From Escherichia coli 042 (GTDB lineage Bacteria > Pseudomonadota > Gammaproteobacteria > Enterobacterales > Enterobacteriaceae): a stretch of 64,000 nt of DNA. Numbering within the stretch: the stretch's first letter is position 1; each line of letters starts with the position of its first letter. The stretch lies in NCBI RefSeq assembly GCF_000027125.1, contig NC_017626.1; one strand, written 5' to 3'. Shown here in pieces: positions 2,371 to 57,871 of the stretch. A program made the translations under genes and the position numbers. The notes under the pieces are model-generated. The model was not told where the DNA came from. It saw only the letters and a list, made by a program, of their open reading frames with translations, and ran no database searches.

Positions 2371-3166
2371 TTATCCCAGTTGTCACCCGGATCATAGTCA
2401 CTTGATGTGACTATGATCCGATTAATACTCTCTCCGCTACACAGCGTTGTAGATCAATTGCGCACTATCATTGAAATAATTACCTGCTGATGATTATTTC
2501 AACCTACTGAATTTCATCTGATTTTTTCATTCCATGGCAAATTAGCCATTTCAAACATTATCATGGCTGATATTTTCCGTAGTCAGGTTTAATGTTTTAA
2601 AAGTGCTGTGGGAAAGTGAACAAAGAGTTCCGTAAGCGTTGATGCTATGGGCGGTTAAATAAGTAATCCGGGTTCATTTTTTGCAACAGGCGTTGATTAC
2701 ATTGCATAAATATCCGTGTCTCCAGACGCTATATAAAAACCTGAAGACATGAATGAGTTATTTACTCAGGTAATTTCAATGCGTTAAAAGAAAGCTGGCA
2801 ATCCAATTGCCAGCTTAAGTCGAAACAAGGAGACTCGATATTTAAATCGGATTACATTTTAACTTTAGTAATATTCTTCAGAGATCACAAACTGGTTATT
2901 GATAACTTATTCTTGGGCAGTAATCCGCAAACGTTAACTTTTTGTTTACTATTTACAAACTGTTAACAACCAGGAATCTTACTTAGGATCAATATATGGA
3001 GTGCGTGATGGATAAATCTGAAGTATTGATTAGTGTTAATAAACGTATTAGTTCACGAAGGGCAAAGTTCTTATAGGCGTTTACTATATTGAACAACGAT
3101 TCGGACAAGGATGTAAATAATGAAAAGGATGACATGTGCGAAACGATAACGGCTAAGGAGCAAGTT

Positions 3167-3694
3167 ATGATTTTTCTCATGACGAAAGATTCTTTTCTTT
3201 TACAGGGCTTTTGGCAGTTGAAAGATAATCACGAAATGATAAAAATCAATTCCCTGTCAGAGATCAAAAAAGTAGGCAATAAACCCTTCAAGGTTATCAT
3301 TGATACCTATCACAATCATATCCTTGATGAAGAAGCGATTAAATTTCTGGAGAAATTAGATGCCGAGAGAATTATTGTTTTGGCACCTTATCACATCAGT
3401 AAACTAAAAGCTAAAGCGCCTATTTATTTTGTCAGCCGCAAAGAAAGTATCAAAAATCTTCTTGAGATTACTTATGGTAAACACTTGCCCCATAAGAATT
3501 CACAATTATGTTTTTCACATAATCAGTTCAAAATTATGCAACTGATTCTGAAAAATAAAAATGAAAGCAATATCACGTCGACGCTCAATATTTCGCAACA
3601 AACATTAAAGATTCAGAAATTCAACATTATGTACAAGCTGAAACTAAGACGTATGAGCGACATCGTCACCCTGGGTATCACATCTTATTTTTAG
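3167..3694 (+). CDS. gadE: LuxR-family acid-resistance master regulator GadE
   Basis: ORF 3089..3694 trimmed to the ATG at 3167 (MIFLMTKDSFLLQGFWQL...), preceded by AAGGAG at 3155-3160; 175 aa with C-terminal LuxR-type HTH. Confidence 0.93.
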   Translation: MIFLMTKDSFLLQGFWQLKDNHEMIKINSLSEIKKVGNKPFKVIIDTYHNHILDEEAIKFLEKLDAERIIVLAPYHISKLKAKAPIYFVSRKESIKNLLEITYGKHLPHKNSQLCFSHNQFKIMQLILKNKNESNITSTLNISQQTLKIQKFNIMYKLKLRRMSDIVTLGITSYF

Positions 3695-4032
3695 TCAGGA
3701 CATAAGCAACTGAAATTGATGGCTGGCATGACGAGGGATGCAGATGCTGATTTCATTACCCCCGGTGATTACTAAAGGAGAGGCGAAAACGACTTTATTC
3801 CCCTGGTATGTGTATCCACCAGTAGAACCCTTCGTTGCCCGAATGCTGGCAGGAACTGTTGGCAGAACGGCAACATTTTTTTTGTCGTTGACCTCACCAT
3901 GTCGATCACTATGCCTGTATCCCACCTTACTGGCTGACAACCCCACTATGCCGCTGGTCTGTAAATCCCTCATATCTCTCCTCGCGCGCAATTTAAAGAA
4001 CCGTTATTTCTCAAGAATTTTCAGGGACTAAA

Positions 4033-5190
4033 ATGAACAGAAGAAGAAAGCTGTTAATACCGTTGTTATTCTGCGGCGCGATGCTCACCGCCTGCGATGA
4101 CAAATCGGCGGAAAACGCCGCCGCCATGACGCCTGAGGTCGGTGTCGTCACGCTCTCCCCCGGTTCGGTCAATGTGTTGAGCGAATTACCCGGTAGAACC
4201 GTTCCTTATGAAGTTGCCGAGATACGTCCCCAGGTGGGCGGTATTATCATTAAACGCAACTTTATCGAAGGCGATAAAGTGAACCAGGGCGATTCGCTGT
4301 ATCAGATTGATCCTGCACCTTTACAGGCCGAGCTGAACTCCGCCAAAGGCACGCTGGCGAAAGCGCTCTCTACCGCCAGCAATGCCCGCATCACCTTTAA
4401 CCGCCAGGCATCGTTGCTGAAGACCAACTACGTTAGCCGTCAGGATTACGACACCGCGCGCACCCAGTTGAATGAAGCAGAAGCCAATGTCACCGTCGCC
4501 AAAGCGGCTGTTGAACAGGCGACTATCAACCTGCAATACGCAAATGTCACCTCGCCGATTACGGGCGTCAGCGGGAAATCGTCGGTGACCGTCGGCGCAC
4601 TCGTTACCGCTAATCAGGCAGATTCGCTGGTTACCGTACAACGTCTGGACCCGATTTATGTCGATCTCACGCAGTCGGTGCAGGATTTCTTGCGTATGAA
4701 AGAAGAGGTCGCCAGTGGGCAAATCAAACAGGTTCAGGGCAGTACGCCAGTACAGCTCAATCTGGAAAATGGTAAACGTTACAGCCAGACCGGCACGCTG
4801 AAATTCTCCGACCCGACGGTGGATGAAACCACGGGCTCCGTGACGTTACGGGCGATTTTCCCCAACCCAAATGGTGACTTGCTGCCTGGCATGTATGTCA
4901 CGGCATTAGTGGATGAAGGTAGCCGCCAGAATGTATTACTGGTGCCGCAGGAAGGTGTCACCCACAACGCCCAGGGTAAAGCAACGGCGCTCATTCTGGA
5001 TAAAGACGATGTTGTGCAGCTACGCGAAATTGAAGCCAGCAAAGCCATCGGCGACCAGTGGGTCGTCACCTCTGGCTTACAGGCTGGCGATCGGGTGATT
5101 GTTTCCGGTTTGCAACGCATTCGTCCGGGTATCAAAGCACGAGCAATTTCCTCCAGCCAGGAAAACGCCAGCACCGAATCGAAACAATAA
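4033..5190 (+). CDS. mdtE: RND efflux periplasmic adaptor (membrane fusion lipoprotein) MdtE
   Basis: 385-aa ORF with lipoprotein signal (LLFCGAMLTAC) and membrane-fusion-protein features; directly upstream of the RND pump gene. Confidence 0.95.
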   Translation: MNRRRKLLIPLLFCGAMLTACDDKSAENAAAMTPEVGVVTLSPGSVNVLSELPGRTVPYEVAEIRPQVGGIIIKRNFIEGDKVNQGDSLYQIDPAPLQAELNSAKGTLAKALSTASNARITFNRQASLLKTNYVSRQDYDTARTQLNEAEANVTVAKAAVEQATINLQYANVTSPITGVSGKSSVTVGALVTANQADSLVTVQRLDPIYVDLTQSVQDFLRMKEEVASGQIKQVQGSTPVQLNLENGKRYSQTGTLKFSDPTVDETTGSVTLRAIFPNPNGDLLPGMYVTALVDEGSRQNVLLVPQEGVTHNAQGKATALILDKDDVVQLREIEASKAIGDQWVVTSGLQAGDRVIVSGLQRIRPGIKARAISSSQENASTESKQ

Positions 5191-8328: not shown

Positions 8329-8340
8329 CGTGTAAATGAG

Positions 8341-8380
8341 AGTAAGGTTGAACGTGAGGGTTCAGCCTTACTCTTTCCTG
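8341..8380 (+). terminator. Putative intrinsic terminator after mdtF
   Basis: Inverted repeat agtaaggttgaac / gttcagccttact followed by a T-rich tract, 13 nt after the mdtF stop. Confidence 0.4.
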
Positions 8381-8690
8381 CCAACCATTCACCACTCAAC
8401 AACCAGCTAACCGTCAGGAATACCAGGCTTAGTACACAGCACTGAAAGTAGAAACCACTCCAGCCATTCGTCATCAATTTGAATAACACAATAGTGACCC
8501 ACATTCCCGTAATCGTATGAATTGTCAGCTTAATAATCCCAAACATGCCGAGTCTTTTCCTCCTGAAAATACCTATACCGCCTGGCAAACTGCGAAAGAG
8601 AACTAGCCGGTAGCCCGGCAGAAATCATCAGGGAAGAGTTTCACATGAAGCAGGTGTGAGATCCTGACCAATATTCAAATGCAAAATATG

Positions 8691-9419: not shown

Positions 9420-9665
9420 GACTATCCCTTATATTTCATTACTGCGATTATTTCAATTTCAGTATACTAATGAAATGATGCCAGACTGTTTCTTAGCGCA
9501 AAAACTGCCAGATTTGGTAGGACCAAAATTTATCCACAAAGTAGTTTTGCATAACAGTTAATTGATAATAAGTAAATGCAACACGAATATATTTTCGCAC
9601 AGCGTATAGCTTATGTTTATAAAAAAATGGCTGATCTTATTTCCAGTAAAAGTTATATTTAACTT

Positions 9666-9771
9666 ACTGAGAGCACAAAGTTTCCCGTGCCAACAGGGAG
9701 TGTTATAACGGTTTATTAGTCTGGAGACGGCAGACTATCCTCTTCCCGGTCCCCTATGCCGGGTTTTTTTT
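9666..9771 (+). ncRNA. gadY: Small regulatory RNA GadY, cis-antisense to the gadX 3' UTR
   Basis: Sequence actgagagcacaaagtttcccgtgccaacagggagtgttataacgg...cccggtcccctatgccgggtttttttt matches the GadY sequence as I recall it and ends in a GC hairpin plus T8 terminator on the plus strand, in the gadX-gadW intergenic region. Confidence 0.75.
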
Positions 9772-9787
9772 ATGTCTGAGTAAAACT

Positions 9788-47215: not shown

Positions 47216-47283
47216 GTTTGGGTTCAAGATTAGCCCCCGTGATGTTGTCAGGTGCATACCTGCAACGTGCGGGGGTTTTCTCT
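47216..47283 (+). ncRNA. rdl: Rdl-family antisense RNA, copy 1
   Basis: Plus-strand element ending in the hairpin gcccccg...cgggggttttctct within the ldr leader; coordinates inferred from my recollection of RdlD. Confidence 0.55.
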
Positions 47284-47542
47284 CTCCAGCAACCAATGCC
47301 ACCAGGGATTAAGCCCCCGCAACATTGCGCCTCACCGGAACCCTTCCGGCTTGCCGCTGATTCTACGGCCATTTTTGTTCGTCGAAATCCATCACTTCTT
47401 CACTCTGTGCTGCGCATTCCGCAGAATATTATCCGCTTGCAGCCGTTGCATTTTTCTTACGAAAAAGGCCGCAGAGTTTCACCTCTGCGGCCTGGTCCGG
47501 GCGCAAATTGCCATTACGGCAGCCTGACGCCCGTCTGACACG

Positions 47543-47650
47543 TTACTTCCGCTTATTCAGCCAGTTCACGATCATGCTGGCAAGAATGCCAGCAATGACC
47601 GGAGCCGCTAAATCATGCCAGAAGGCCATGCCCAGCTCTGCGAGCGTCAT
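47543..47650 (-). CDS. ldr: Ldr-family type I toxin peptide (35 aa), copy 2
   Basis: Same frame and length as copy 1; C-terminus ...ASMIVNWLNKRK; not reported separately in the ORF track. Confidence 0.8.
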   Translation of the reverse strand: MTLAELGMAFWHDLAAPVIAGILASMIVNWLNKRK

Positions 47651-47698
47651 ATAGCCGCCAGTGTTGTAATGACAACGTTTCGCGGCTATTCTTGAGTT

Positions 47699-47766
47699 GT
47701 GTAGGTTCAAGAATGGCCCCCGTCATATTGTCAGGTGAATACCTGCAACGTGCGGGGGTTTTCTCT
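47699..47766 (+). ncRNA. rdl: Rdl-family antisense RNA, copy 2
   Basis: Repeat-unit copy of the rdl element with terminator hairpin. Confidence 0.5.
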
Positions 47767-48025
47767 CTCCAGCAACCAATGCCACCAGGGATTAAGCCCC
47801 CGCAACATTGCGCCTCACCGGAACCCTTCCGGCTTGCCGCTGATTCTACGACTGTTTTTCTGTTCCGAAATCCATCACTTCTTCACTCTGTGCTGCGCAT
47901 TCCGCAGAATATTATCCGCTTGCAGCCGTTGCATTTTTCTTACGAAAAAGGCCGCAGAGTTTTATCCCTGCGGCCTGATCCGGGCGCAAATTGCCATTAC
48001 GGCAGCCTGACGCCCGTCTGACACG

Positions 48026-48133
48026 TTACTTCTGCTTGTTCAGCCAGTTCACGATCATGCTGGCAAGAATGCCAGCAATGACCGGAGCCGCTAAATCGTG
48101 CCAGAAGGCCATGCCCAGCTCTGCGAGCGTCAT
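48026..48133 (-). CDS. ldr: Ldr-family type I toxin peptide (35 aa), copy 3
   Basis: MTLAELGMAFWHDLAAPVIAGILASMIVNWLNKQK. Confidence 0.85.
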   Translation of the reverse strand: MTLAELGMAFWHDLAAPVIAGILASMIVNWLNKQK

Positions 48134-48181
48134 ATAGCCGCCTCTGTTGTAATGACAACGTTTCGCGGCTATTCTTGAGTT

Positions 48182-48249
48182 GTGTAGGTTCAAGAATGGC
48201 CCCCGTGATGTTGTCAGGTGCATACCTGCAACGTGCGGGGGTTTTCTCT
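48182..48249 (+). ncRNA. rdl: Rdl-family antisense RNA, copy 3
   Basis: Repeat-unit copy of the rdl element with terminator hairpin. Confidence 0.5.
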
Positions 48250-48508
48250 CTCCAGCAACCAATGCCACCAGGGATTAAGCCCCCGCAACATTGCGCCTCA
48301 CCGGAACCCTTCCGGCTTGCCGCTGATTCTACGACTGTTTTTCTGTTCCGAAATCCATCACTTCTTCACTCTGTGCTGCGCATTCCGCAGAATATTATCC
48401 GCTTGCAGCCGTTGCATTTTTCTTACGAAAAAGGCCGCAGAGTTTCACCTCTGCGGCCTGGTCCGGGCGCAAATTGCCATTACGGCAGCCTGACGCCCGT
48501 CTGACACG

Positions 48509-48616
48509 TTACTTCCGCTTGTTCAGCCAGTTCACGATCATGCTGGCAAGAATGCCAGCAATGACCGGAGCCGCTAAATCATGCCAGAAGGCCATGCCCA
48601 GTTCTGCGAGCGTCAT
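48509..48616 (-). CDS. ldr: Ldr-family type I toxin peptide (35 aa), copy 4
   Basis: MTLAELGMAFWHDLAAPVIAGILASMIVNWLNKRK. Confidence 0.85.
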   Translation of the reverse strand: MTLAELGMAFWHDLAAPVIAGILASMIVNWLNKRK

Positions 48617-48664
48617 ATAGCCGCCTGAGTTGTAATGACAACGTTTCGCGGCTATTCTTGAATG

Positions 48665-48732
48665 GTCTAGATGCAAGAATGGCCCCCGTGGTGTTGTCAG
48701 GTGCATACCTGCAACGTGCGGGGGTTTTCTCT
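48665..48732 (+). ncRNA. rdl: Rdl-family antisense RNA, copy 4 (RdlD-like)
   Basis: gtctagatgcaagaatggcccccgtggtgttgtcaggtgcatacctgcaacgtgcgggggttttctct, the copy closest to the RdlD sequence as I recall it. Confidence 0.6.
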
Positions 48733-48991
48733 CTCCAGCAACCAATGCCACCAGGGATTAAGCCCCCGCAACATTGCGCCTCACCGGAACCCTTCCGGCT
48801 TGCCGCTGATTCTACGGCCATTTTTGTTCGTCGAAATCCATCACTTCTTCACTCTGTGCTGCGCATTCCGCAGAATATTATCCGCTTGCAGCCGTTGCAT
48901 TTTTCTTACGAAAAAGGCCGCAGAGTTTTATCCCTGCGGCCTGATCCGGGCGCAAATTGCCATTACGGCAGCCTGACGCCCGTCTGACACG

Positions 48992-49099
48992 TTACTTCTG
49001 CTTGTTCAGCCAGTTCACGATCATGCTGGCAAGAATGCCAGCAATGACCGGAGCCGCTAAATCGTGCCAGAAGGCCATGCCCAGCTCTGCGAGCGTCAT
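48992..49099 (-). CDS. ldr: Ldr-family type I toxin peptide (35 aa), copy 5
   Basis: MTLAELGMAFWHDLAAPVIAGILASMIVNWLNKQK. Confidence 0.85.
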   Translation of the reverse strand: MTLAELGMAFWHDLAAPVIAGILASMIVNWLNKQK

Positions 49100-49147
49100 A
49101 TAGCCGCCTCTGTTGTAATGACAACGTTTCGCGGCTATTCTTGAGTT

Positions 49148-49215
49148 GTGTAGGTTCAAGAATGGCCCCCGTGATGTTGTCAGGTGCATACCTGCAACGT
49201 GCGGGGGTTTTCTCT
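49148..49215 (+). ncRNA. rdl: Rdl-family antisense RNA, copy 5
   Basis: Repeat-unit copy of the rdl element with terminator hairpin. Confidence 0.5.
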
Positions 49216-54900: not shown

Positions 54901-55072
<172 letters not shown>

Positions 55073-55108
55073 AGTTTTGCCTTTGCCATCAGTCTTGTAT
55101 GGCTTTAA

Positions 55109-56716
55109 TTATTCGATAGAGACGTTTTCGAAGTGATGTTTGCCTAATGGATCAACCACATAGCCTTTAACTTCTTTGCGTACCGGTTCAAACACGGTGG
55201 AGTGAGCGATGATCAGTGCCGGAGCCTGATCGTGCATCACCACCTGTGCTTGCTTATACAGCTCAATACGCTTGTTGTGGTCGTCAGTAGCACGTGCCGG
55301 TTGAATCAGATCTTCAAACGGCTTGTAGCACCATTTTGAGTAGTTGGAACCTTGTTCAGAAGCAGCGCAGCTGAACAGGGTGGCGAAGAAGTTATCCGGA
55401 TCCCCGTTGTCGCCAGTCCAGCCCATCATTACCGTCTGATGCTCGCCATCTTTCGCGCGCTTGAGGTACTCACCCCATTCGTAGGTGACGATTTTGGCCT
55501 GTACGCCCACTTTCGCCCAGTCTGCCTGAATCATCTCCGCCATGCGGCGAGCGTTCGGGTTATACGGACGTTGTACCGGCATCGCCCACAGGTCGATGGA
55601 GAAACCTTTTTCCAGACCCGCTTCTTTCAGCAAGGCTTTCGCTTTTTCGGGATCGTAGGTGTAGTCCTGAACGTCGTCGTTATAGCCCCACATGGTTGGC
55701 GGGATCAGGTTTTTCGCTGCCACGCCCGCGCCCTGATAAACCGCTTTGATGATCGCGTCTTTGTTCACCGCGTAGGTCAGAGCCTGGCGAACTTTCACAT
55801 CATCGAGTGGTTTTTTCTGCACGTTATATGAAAGATAGCCGACGTTCAGCCCCGGCATTTCCATCAGGTTGATGGATTTATCCTGCTTCATGCGAGCGAT
55901 GTCTGCCGGGTTCGGGTACGGCATCACCTGGCATTCATTCTTCTGCAATTTCGCGTAACGCACGGAAGCATCAGGGGTAATAGAGAAAACCAGCGTATCG
56001 ATCTGCGGTTTGGTGCCCCAGTAGCCATCAAACGCTTTGTAGCGGATACGGGAATCTTTTTGGTACTGCTGTAACTGGAACGGACCGGTGCCGATTGGGT
56101 TGAGGTCCAGTTTTTCCGGTGTACCGGCTTTCATCATCGCGTCAGCATATTCTTTTGACAGAATAGAGGCGAAGTCCATTGCCAGATCCGCGAGGAACGG
56201 CGCTTCCGGGCGAGTCAGCACGAACTGAACGGTGTTATCGTCCACCTTTTTCACTTCGCTGATCAGCTCCGGCAAGCCCATGCCTTCGAAGTATTCGTAG
56301 CTGCCGCCAGAAACTTTATGGTACGGGTTTTGCGCGTTTTTCTGACGATCGAACGAGAACACCACGTCATCGGCGTTCAGTTCGCGCGTCGGTTTGAATT
56401 CTTTATTGTCGTGCCACTTCACACCTTTACGCAGATGGAAGGTATAGGTTTTACCGTCTTCGCTGACTTCCCACTTTTCAGCGAGGCCCGGGATCACTTC
56501 GGTGGTGCCGATTTTAAATTCAACCAGGCGGTTATAAAGCGGCACGGAAGAGGCGTCATAGGTAGTACCGGAGGTAAACAACTGCGGGTTAAACCCTTCC
56601 GGAGATCCTTCTGAGCAATAAACCAGAGTTTTAGCCTGAACACTTGCTGCGACGGTCATAGCCACCAGGCTGAGACCAAGCTTCAGCATCCCTGACTTTT
56701 TCAAGGAAATACGCAT
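55109..56716 (-). CDS. dppA: Periplasmic dipeptide-binding protein DppA
   Basis: 535-aa ORF with signal peptide (MRISLKKSGMLKLGLSLVAMTVAASVQA); first gene of dppABCDF. Confidence 0.96.
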   Translation of the reverse strand: MRISLKKSGMLKLGLSLVAMTVAASVQAKTLVYCSEGSPEGFNPQLFTSGTTYDASSVPLYNRLVEFKIGTTEVIPGLAEKWEVSEDGKTYTFHLRKGVKWHDNKEFKPTRELNADDVVFSFDRQKNAQNPYHKVSGGSYEYFEGMGLPELISEVKKVDDNTVQFVLTRPEAPFLADLAMDFASILSKEYADAMMKAGTPEKLDLNPIGTGPFQLQQYQKDSRIRYKAFDGYWGTKPQIDTLVFSITPDASVRYAKLQKNECQVMPYPNPADIARMKQDKSINLMEMPGLNVGYLSYNVQKKPLDDVKVRQALTYAVNKDAIIKAVYQGAGVAAKNLIPPTMWGYNDDVQDYTYDPEKAKALLKEAGLEKGFSIDLWAMPVQRPYNPNARRMAEMIQADWAKVGVQAKIVTYEWGEYLKRAKDGEHQTVMMGWTGDNGDPDNFFATLFSCAASEQGSNYSKWCYKPFEDLIQPARATDDHNKRIELYKQAQVVMHDQAPALIIAHSTVFEPVRKEVKGYVVDPLGKHHFENVSIE

Positions 56717-56728
56717 TATTCTGCTCCA

Positions 56729-56750
56729 ATTGTGATGTTTGTTGTTTTAA
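56729..56750 (-). promoter_or_regulatory. C/A-rich element in the dppA 5' leader, probable GcvB sRNA target site
   Basis: Minus-strand aaaacaacaaacatcacaa immediately upstream of the GGAGCAG Shine-Dalgarno and the ATG; dppA is an established GcvB target through such a C/A-rich site. Confidence 0.5.
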
Positions 56751-57295
56751 CCCTTTGCAGTGGGTTGTCGCTGCCTGACCTTTTTTGTTTTTTGCCCGGT
56801 CGGGTCAACGTTATGAGGTGGGGATGCCGTACTAATTAACATCAGTGTAACAGTGCGGATCCTCCATAAAATGCCCCTCGTGACCTACAATCTGTCAACA
56901 GAATGTGAAAACGTCAATACAGCCAACCGGGATTTACACCAACGGTGAGAATCCACAAACAAAGATTAAAAAAACTTCAAACAGCTATTTGCAGCAGAGA
57001 AATTTGTGCTACTCCAACATGACCAGAACAATCAGCTTAATATTTAGCAACAATTGGTGATTAAGTTTTATGCATTTTGTGAAAAAAATCTGAGGAAAAG
57101 GTGGATATCTGAGCGATTAATACCATGAACGCTAAAACGCACAGCGGAAAATGCCAGCGCCAGCCATAAGTAACGCAAAAAAAAATTTAAGCAAATATAA
57201 AAAAAGACAATGGTTTCTGTCACAAATCCGTTAATGGATAGTGAGATATGGGCGCAAATTTGGCAGGAAAATGTGTGGTGTGTAGGTCGAATAAG

Positions 57296-57794
57296 GCGGT
57301 CGCGCCGCATCCGACAATGGGCCGGCACATTTGCCTGATGCGACGCTGGCGCGTCTTATCAGGCCTACGTCGAATCGAACCTCCCTGCCCCCGGAAGTTC
57401 TCATCCTCTTCAGGCCGCAGAAAGCAAAAAACCAGCCCGTAGGCTGGTTTTTCTAAATTGGTCGGTGATAGAGGATTACTCGCCACTTCGTGGCTCGCCC
57501 TGCGGGCCGTTGCTGGCGCAACGTTCTCTCGCTTCGCTCGAGTCGAATCTCCCTGCCCCCGGAGGTTCTCATCCTCATAGGCTACAAATGCAAAAAAGCC
57601 TGCTCGCTGAGCAGGCTTTTCGAATTTGGTCGGTGCCAGAGGATTACTCGCCACTTCGTGGCTCGCCCTGCGGGCCGTTGCTGGCGCAACGTTCTCTCGC
57701 TTCGCTCGAGTCGAACCTCCCTGCCCCCGGAGGTTCTCATCCTCATGGGCTACAAATGCAAAAAAGCCTGCTCGCTGAGCAGGCTTTTCGAATT
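57296..57794. repeat. Three tandem imperfect direct repeats (about 150-185 bp), each ending with a terminator hairpin plus a roughly 20-nt copy of the proK 3' end
   Basis: Units at about 57296-57479, 57480-57648 and 57649-57794. Each contains tcgaa(t/c)ctccctgcccccgga(a/g)gttctcatcctc, a hairpin (aaaaaaccagcccgtaggctggttttt or aaaaaagcctgctcgctgagcaggctttt) and aatttggtcggtg(at/cc)agaggatt, which matches the proK 3' terminus. Confidence 0.7.
57762..57790 (-). terminator. Rho-independent terminator of proK
   Basis: On the minus strand aaaagcctgctcagcgagcaggcttttttg, 5 nt after the tRNA 3' end. Confidence 0.65.

Positions 57795-57871
<77 letters not shown>

Follow-up and report, generated by a model that had tools for sequence, protein, structure and literature searches.

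The 338-nt spacer between gadE and mdtE in the analysed stretch of Escherichia coli 042 (64,000 nt, to be referred to as the window) very probably consists of the gadE 3′ UTR, with the small RNA (sRNA) GadF and its intrinsic terminator, followed by a 149-nt mdtE leader devoid of promoters, GadF being processed from the gadE mRNA and mdtEF being expressed by read-through. The sRNA and its terminator are already known, as the annotated and published GadF/ES205. The overall reading combines the identity of gadF/ES205, its terminator, the conservation of its seeds and the lack of promoter motifs, as found here, with the Hfq binding, processing, target motifs, co-transcription and inactive PmdtE fusion described in the literature. 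Beyond the literature, four candidate features were found by sequence comparison: an open reading frame on the plus strand, an upstream block complementary to the seeds, a conserved block in the mdtE leader, and a T7/T8 polymorphism in the U tract.

The stop codon of gadE ends at position 3694 and the ATG of mdtE is at 4033 (Table 1), so that the gap of 338 bp given in an earlier note on this DNA is confirmed by the list of open reading frames. The spacer has the same length in K-12 MG1655 and differs from its K-12 counterpart at just two sites, 3785 and 3911, neither of which lies within GadF. Among 5426 complete E. coli genomes the spacer is found in 5413, with at least 99% identity in 4150 of these. 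The spacer was also searched for repeats, direct as well as inverted, and only short two-copy chance matches came up.

The earlier note had proposed that the spacer may give rise to an sRNA derived from the gadE 3′ UTR and may contain an internal terminator or promoter. The first two proposals are borne out. Comparison with reported gadE 3′ UTR sRNAs identifies the segment as K-12 gadF (b4718), with 100% identity; this sRNA has been published as Hfq-bound, detected by northern blot and processed from gadE mRNA, and a strong intrinsic terminator forms its 3′ end. The internal promoter, on the other hand, finds no counterpart in the motifs of the spacer or in the published reporter fusion (see below). 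The two ORF entries described there do lie on opposite strands and overlap each other, and the judgement that neither is credible holds, as codon-position periodicity is absent from both.

Table 1. Features of the gadE-mdtE region, with positions in the window.
Feature	Position	Strand	Description
gadE CDS	3167..3694	+	175 aa, K-12 start; GC about 0.30–0.35, AT-rich; from ORF list and K-12 annotation (offset 200)
gadE-mdtE spacer	3695..4032	+	gadE 3′ UTR (3695–3883) plus mdtE leader (3884–4032)
Minus-strand ORF	3695..3991	-	98 aa, TTG start; antisense to GadF
Conserved gadE 3′ UTR block	3712..3770	+	GCUGG at 3722–3726, SD-like GAGGG at 3733–3737, ATGs at 3738 and 3744; from alignments
Plus-strand ORF	3738..4031	+	97 aa, ATG start; spans seeds, hairpin and U tract; ends with TAA
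GadF sRNA, 91-nt form	3793..3883	+	K-12 b4718 (3658992–3659082), all 91 positions identical
Seed 1, CCCCUGG	3800..3806	+	Complement of CLASH motif CCAGGGG; in the 91-nt form only
ES205 sRNA, 72-nt form	3812..3883	+	Rfam RF02754; coordinates of Rau 2015
Seed 2, CACCAG	3817..3822	+	Complement of target motif CUGGUG
Terminator hairpin	3834..3874	+	-20.7 kcal/mol; lower helix GUUGCC/GGCAAC, upper helix of 9 bp
U8 tract	3876..3883	+	Transcript 3′ end, expected Hfq-binding tail
Fast-evolving stretch of mdtE leader	3884..3944	+	About 80% variable columns; other species have indels of 9 and 12 nt in frame
Conserved C-rich block CACTATGCCGCTGGTCTGTAAATCCCTCATA	3945..3975	+	mdtE leader; within a stretch with C in excess of G, GC skew -0.40
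mdtE ribosome-binding region	4023..4035	+	AGGGA at 4023–4027, plus-strand ORF TAA at 4029–4031, ATG at 4033
mdtE CDS	4033..5190	+	385 aa, lipoprotein signal

There is a sharp step in base composition across positions 3100–4700 of the window. The GC content is 0.26–0.40 in gadE, about 0.45–0.51 in the spacer and 0.49–0.63 in mdtE. This compositional step suggests that gadE and mdtEF are of different origin and were joined secondarily.

The ES205 family model (RF02754) is matched by the 3′ UTR over its entire length (model positions 1–72 of 72), scoring 105 bits where the gathering threshold is 86 (cmscan, E = 3.8e-18). The 91-nt form of GadF is predicted to fold into a weak 5′ hairpin and the strong terminator hairpin, followed by an A and the U8 tract, with a folding energy of -26.4 kcal/mol and a z score of -2.3 against shuffled sequences. 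Fold prediction, which the earlier note had recommended for the whole interval, therefore singles out the GadF segment, while the full 338-nt spacer is no more stable than shuffled sequence (z = +0.25). A Rho-independent terminator with a U tail of at least 6–7 residues is expected of Hfq-dependent sRNAs, and the -20.7 kcal/mol hairpin of GadF is followed by such a tail.

GadF was named by Melamed 2016 (PMC5145812), a study that reports large amounts of it on Hfq in stationary phase and a discrete northern band. The 72-nt ES205 was described independently by Rau 2015 (PMC4676190), and GadF was confirmed by northern blot in Iosub 2020 (PMC7213987). Its association with Hfq is documented by co-immunoprecipitation, RIL-seq and CLASH (PMC5145812, PMC7213987). 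Through GadF, a post-transcriptional regulator is tied to GadE, the master activator of acid resistance.

The length of the U tract is polymorphic in natural isolates. Among 4212 complete E. coli genomes that share a 60-nt haplotype, the T8 allele is carried by 3965 and the T7 allele by 234 (5.6%), with 2–3 genomes having T9. The difference between T7 and T8 could alter the formation of the GadF 3′ end, the binding of Hfq, and the read-through into mdtEF.

Transcripts would start at the gadE promoters, and most of them would end at the U8 tract (3883) to give the gadE mRNA. Endonucleolytic processing would then free GadF from this mRNA, with 5′ ends at 3793 and 3812. A probe for GadF detects transcripts of gadE length as well, and GadF is depleted by a 5′-phosphate-dependent exonuclease (TEX); on these grounds, Melamed 2016 (PMC5145812) concluded that GadF is processed from the gadE mRNA. 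Moreover, the gadE 3′ UTR is listed among the 3′ UTR sRNAs released by RNase E, in the overlap of CLASH data with those from RIL-seq and from TIER-seq (Iosub 2020, PMC7213987).

A purely processed origin is contradicted, however, by Rau 2015 (PMC4676190), because the 5′ end of the 72-nt ES205 (3812) is equated there with a previously mapped transcription start site. GadF/ES205 would in that case be a primary transcript from its own promoter in the gadE 3′ UTR, a type I sRNA like DapZ and MicL. We consider such an origin very unlikely. A consensus scan of both strands of 3695–4032 for σ70-like pairs of -35 and -10 hexamers, with a spacing of 16–18 nt, found none, and there is no acceptable -10 hexamer at the proper distance upstream of either 3812 or 3793. 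The exonuclease depletion, the gadE-length transcripts and the RNase E data are also against it. Processing from the gadE mRNA is thus the preferred origin of GadF.

Polymerases that pass the GadF terminator would produce a gadE-mdtEF transcript, and the terminator would therefore set the ratio of gadE to mdtEF expression. Co-transcription of gadE and mdtEF was observed by RT-PCR in Deng 2013 (PMC3708157), and a PmdtE-lacZ fusion was reported in the same paper to be inactive under both aerobic and anaerobic conditions, with the data not displayed. In the spacer, no EvgA box (TTCYTACA-N2-TGTARGAA) is found with up to three mismatches. The best match to the 20-bp GAD box in the spacer has 11 of 20 positions, which is background, as 475 sites in the window reach this level; the box of gadA matches at 20 of 20. 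As promoter motifs are absent and the PmdtE-lacZ fusion is inactive, read-through of the terminator is favored as the route to mdtEF. Expression of mdtEF most likely depends on it, and we infer that it is the sole route.

An alternative is that a conditional promoter within the spacer, dependent on EvgA, GadE or σS, drives mdtEF without gadE. Binding of EvgA to the gadE-mdtE intergenic region in EMSA is consistent with this possibility, as reported by Nishino and Yamaguchi 2002 according to its citation in PMC3708157. Deletion of gadE abolishes the induction of mdtEF by YdeO, an observation that also fits the read-through model; the paper that made it lists mdtEF as a transcription unit of its own. 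The conserved block in the mdtE leader could be part of such a promoter. The dependence on GadE is equally well explained, however, by autoregulation of gadE or by polarity of the deletion. Together with the inactive fusion and the absence of a σ70-like hexamer pair, an EvgA box and a GAD box, this makes the internal promoter rather unlikely. In the preferred reading, with mdtEF reached by read-through, the GadF terminator is the only sequence-level device found that separates the output of gadE from the expression of the MdtEF multidrug pump. This has a bearing on how E. coli tolerates acid, anaerobic conditions and drugs, and is established knowledge.

GadF would base-pair with its target mRNAs through CCCCUGG and CACCAG, aided by Hfq. 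The corresponding target motifs, CCAGGGG and CUGGUG, were derived from CLASH data (Iosub 2020, PMC7213987). The two seeds also complement one another. Folding of the 91-nt form predicts that they pair, with an unpaired probability of about 0 and a hairpin energy of -5.9 kcal/mol. The 72-nt form lacks seed 1, and the predicted unpaired probability of seed 2 in it is above 0.9. Because seed 2 is unpaired there, we infer that the 72-nt form may be the more active isoform.

In the predicted fold of the full 3′ UTR, the seeds are paired instead with the conserved upstream block, at GCUGG and around GAGGG. A duplex scan of the gadE mRNA places the best complement of the seed region at 3726–3733 (rank 1 of 604 windows, -18.7 kcal/mol), but composition-preserving shuffles give a p of only 0.12. 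The upstream block may pair with the seeds in the precursor, and processing may unmask them in a stepwise manner; in view of this p value, it is kept as a hypothesis. An ORF of 18 codons, MAGMTRDADADFITPGDY, is located at 3719–3775 on the plus strand, within this block. Its frame extends over 70–97 codons in Escherichia other than E. coli, and ACG replaces its ATG in E. whittamii as well as in two further lineages.

Regulation of targets by GadF is weakly established. Overexpression of GadF increased acrB and cfa reporter fusions in Melamed 2016 (PMC5145812); in Bianco 2019 (PMC6755755), cfa was activated by no more than about 1.2-fold, and no footprint was found. CUGGUG is present at the acrA/acrB junction. 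Neither CCAGGGG nor CUGGUG is present in the 5′ UTR of cfa. In RNAduplex calculations, the GadF 5′ region paired with the 5′ UTR of cfa and with the leader of acrB at energies not better than those for shuffled sRNA, and these energies are not used as evidence here.

The spacer was aligned from gadE loci of E. coli, E. albertii, E. whittamii and further Escherichia lineages, giving 10 distinct sequences. Both seeds, the lower helix of the terminator and the U tract are invariant among them. The 9-bp upper helix carries only single substitutions that are compatible with wobble pairing, and 96% of the alignment cells in the predicted helices are paired. No compensatory double changes are seen in the GadF helices among the 10 sequences, and covariation therefore neither supports nor opposes the structure. 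The region immediately downstream of the terminator evolves rapidly, and by sequence comparison its variability may be taken as a local, near-neutral baseline. The conserved C-rich block that follows it in the mdtE leader is rut-like by composition.

Several individual loci show unusual arrangements. In E. coli TB354 (L022, NZ_AP038814.1), an IS5 element at about 3780 splits GadF and mdtEF from the gadE promoters. A contig from a human gut metagenome (L041) has a 13-nt deletion of 3954–3966 in the conserved leader block, which may be an assembly error (coverage 4.8x). Another metagenome contig, NODE_8692 (L015/L043), has a spacer that resembles E. coli as far as the GadF terminator and E. albertii further downstream, which suggests that recombination took place at the terminator or that the assembly is chimeric there. 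The E. coli gadE-GadF-mdtE sequence is found as well in contigs labeled Flavobacterium paronense CECT 8460 (L009), where it has indels of the homopolymer type, and Streptomyces sp. DH24 (L010); both are most likely E. coli contamination of those assemblies.

The plus-strand ORF runs through the entire GadF sequence, and it is not evolving as a protein. The numbers of variable columns at the three codon positions are 31/37/38 (p = 0.53), compared to 13/8/75 in gadE and 11/7/52 in the first 294 nt of mdtE, with all counts, including those for the minus-strand ORF (see below), being taken from the same genomes. There is no constraint at the amino-acid level. Searches of Pfam and NCBIfam with the plus- and minus-strand ORFs gave no match, and a homology search with the plus-strand ORF found only Escherichia copies of the same locus.

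The frame itself has several odd features. No interruption is seen in any of the seven Escherichia lineages that were ascertained through GadE, although about 36% of the columns are variable and indels of 9 and 12 nt occur in frame. Its only stop codon is the terminal one, compared to 2–9 stops in the other frames. In column-shuffle tests, an open reference frame has P = 0.012, and its persistence in all other lineages has P = 0.004–0.02, the test being post hoc and on one of six frames. Four loci (L011, L013, L015 and L017) were left out of these statistics because they had been ascertained through the plus-strand ORF itself. In six of the seven lineages the stop codon lies 1 nt before the ATG of mdtE, and an SD-like GAGGG, part of the conserved upstream block, is located 6 nt upstream of the ATG at 3744.

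These features raise the possibility that the ORF (3738/3744–4031) is translated on read-through or nascent transcripts, with the act of translation being important rather than the peptide. A ribosome trailing RNA polymerase through 3834–3883 would suppress the terminator hairpin of GadF. It would also block the loading of Rho on the mdtE leader, which is C-rich and G-poor, and would then reinitiate at mdtE via UAAAAUG. Against this, codon periodicity is absent, the T7 allele cuts the ORF to 50 aa, and the open-frame test has the post hoc character given above. Two published Ribo-seq studies report no small ORF here, under conditions and with size filters that are unfavorable for its detection. 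The ORF is also broken in 4 of 27 metagenomic loci; gadE is interrupted in about 4 out of 24 of these loci, and because of this similar rate the metagenome sample does not discriminate. Translation of the ORF with a function, such as pyrBI-like suppression of the terminator together with coupling to mdtE, is very improbable in our assessment.

The spacer would have a dual use if such translation took place. When transcription terminates, it would provide the sRNA GadF; on nascent transcripts, or on those that read through, the unconstrained ORF of 95–97 codons would be translated, suppressing the terminator and Rho and leading to reinitiation at mdtE. Initiation at the ORF (SD GAGGG, ATG 3744) would choose between the sRNA and the efflux pump, and pairing of 3722–3737 with the GadF seeds would mask both the start of the ORF and the seeds in the precursor. 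If the frame through the terminator were indeed translated, it would be a switch of an unusual kind, with the sRNA on one side and expression of the pump on the other. We give the combined mechanism little chance of being correct, and the preferred reading remains that of a processed GadF with read-through into mdtEF.

The ORF on the minus strand is probably an annotation artefact. A "hypothetical protein" (for example, WP_001205327.1) is annotated by PGAP at 3695–3973 on this strand in nearly all RefSeq E. coli genomes, and E. coli and E. whittamii, as well as two further Escherichia lineages, have an intact frame, as might be expected of a real gene antisense to GadF. Interruptions, however, leave 38 and 67 aa of it in E. 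albertii and 72 aa in the E69 lineage, and the variable columns at its codon positions (35/30/39) show no periodicity. The absence of a domain match, the lack of any promoter-like site on the minus strand of the spacer and its omission from the curated K-12 record also argue against a gene, which we regard as extremely improbable. In T7 strains, PGAP labels the ORF a "frameshifted" pseudogene. The gadF gene is left unannotated by PGAP in these genomes, and only the curated K-12 record carries it. As a practical by-product of this analysis, RefSeq/PGAP thus carries a probably spurious antisense protein and omits gadF in nearly all E. coli genomes. The start of mdtE is also annotated differently by PGAP in strain 118UI and others, at 4081 (369 aa), which drops the lipoprotein signal peptide MNRRRKLLIPLLFCGAMLTAC that is kept by the K-12 start at 4033.

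Other RNA features are located elsewhere in the window. The sRNA GadY is found at 9663–9776 on the plus strand (Rfam match of 150 bits); gadW and gadX flank it, as they do in K-12. Five tandem matches to the rdlD antitoxin RNA at 47216–49213 (plus strand), with a spacing of 483 nt, indicate a putative ldr/rdl toxin-antitoxin array. A cluster of RNA families at 55009–57871 includes ES036 (55009–55051), naRNA4 (57285–57365), two RtT repeats (57459–57762, minus strand) and a tRNA (57798–57871, minus strand). An irrelevant miRNA model gave a sub-threshold match, on each of the two strands, to a near-perfect palindrome at 715–757, between yhiD and hdeB; the palindrome probably represents a stem-loop or a terminator within the hdeAB-yhiD unit. 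Schumacher 2023 (PMC10746267) described sORF15, a translated 93-aa small ORF in the gadW 3′ UTR beside mdtF that was verified by western blot. It corresponds to about 8330–8690 on the minus strand of the window, between mdtF and gadW.

The arrangement of the plus-strand ORF has some likeness to attenuation of the pyrBI type. This likeness is in topology only: an ORF with an SD-like sequence crosses a terminator hairpin and U tract, and ends beside the start of the next gene. Unlike in pyrBI, the translation is putative, the element separates two genes of one operon and at the same time serves as an sRNA, it is not known to involve regulatory pausing or a sensing step, and the T7 alleles break the frame.

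The sRNA of the window is the same as K-12 GadF (b4718)/ES205, with the same locus, flanking genes and terminator, and there is no difference in the sRNA. A broader comparison can be made with CpxQ (from the cpxP 3′ UTR), SdhX (from the sdhCDAB-sucABCD 3′ UTR), NarS and UhpU, the type II class of 3′ UTR sRNAs, which are processed by RNase E and dependent on Hfq. GadF resembles these sRNAs in probably being cleaved from its parent mRNA and in sharing the terminator of that mRNA, in having a conserved seed just upstream of the terminator, and in acting in the same physiological pathway as the product of the parent gene. There are clear differences, however. GadF is located within an operon rather than at its end, and because of this position its terminator also gates mdtEF. 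In addition, GadF carries two mutually complementary seeds, and it is confined to Escherichia and Shigella, where it tracks gadE.
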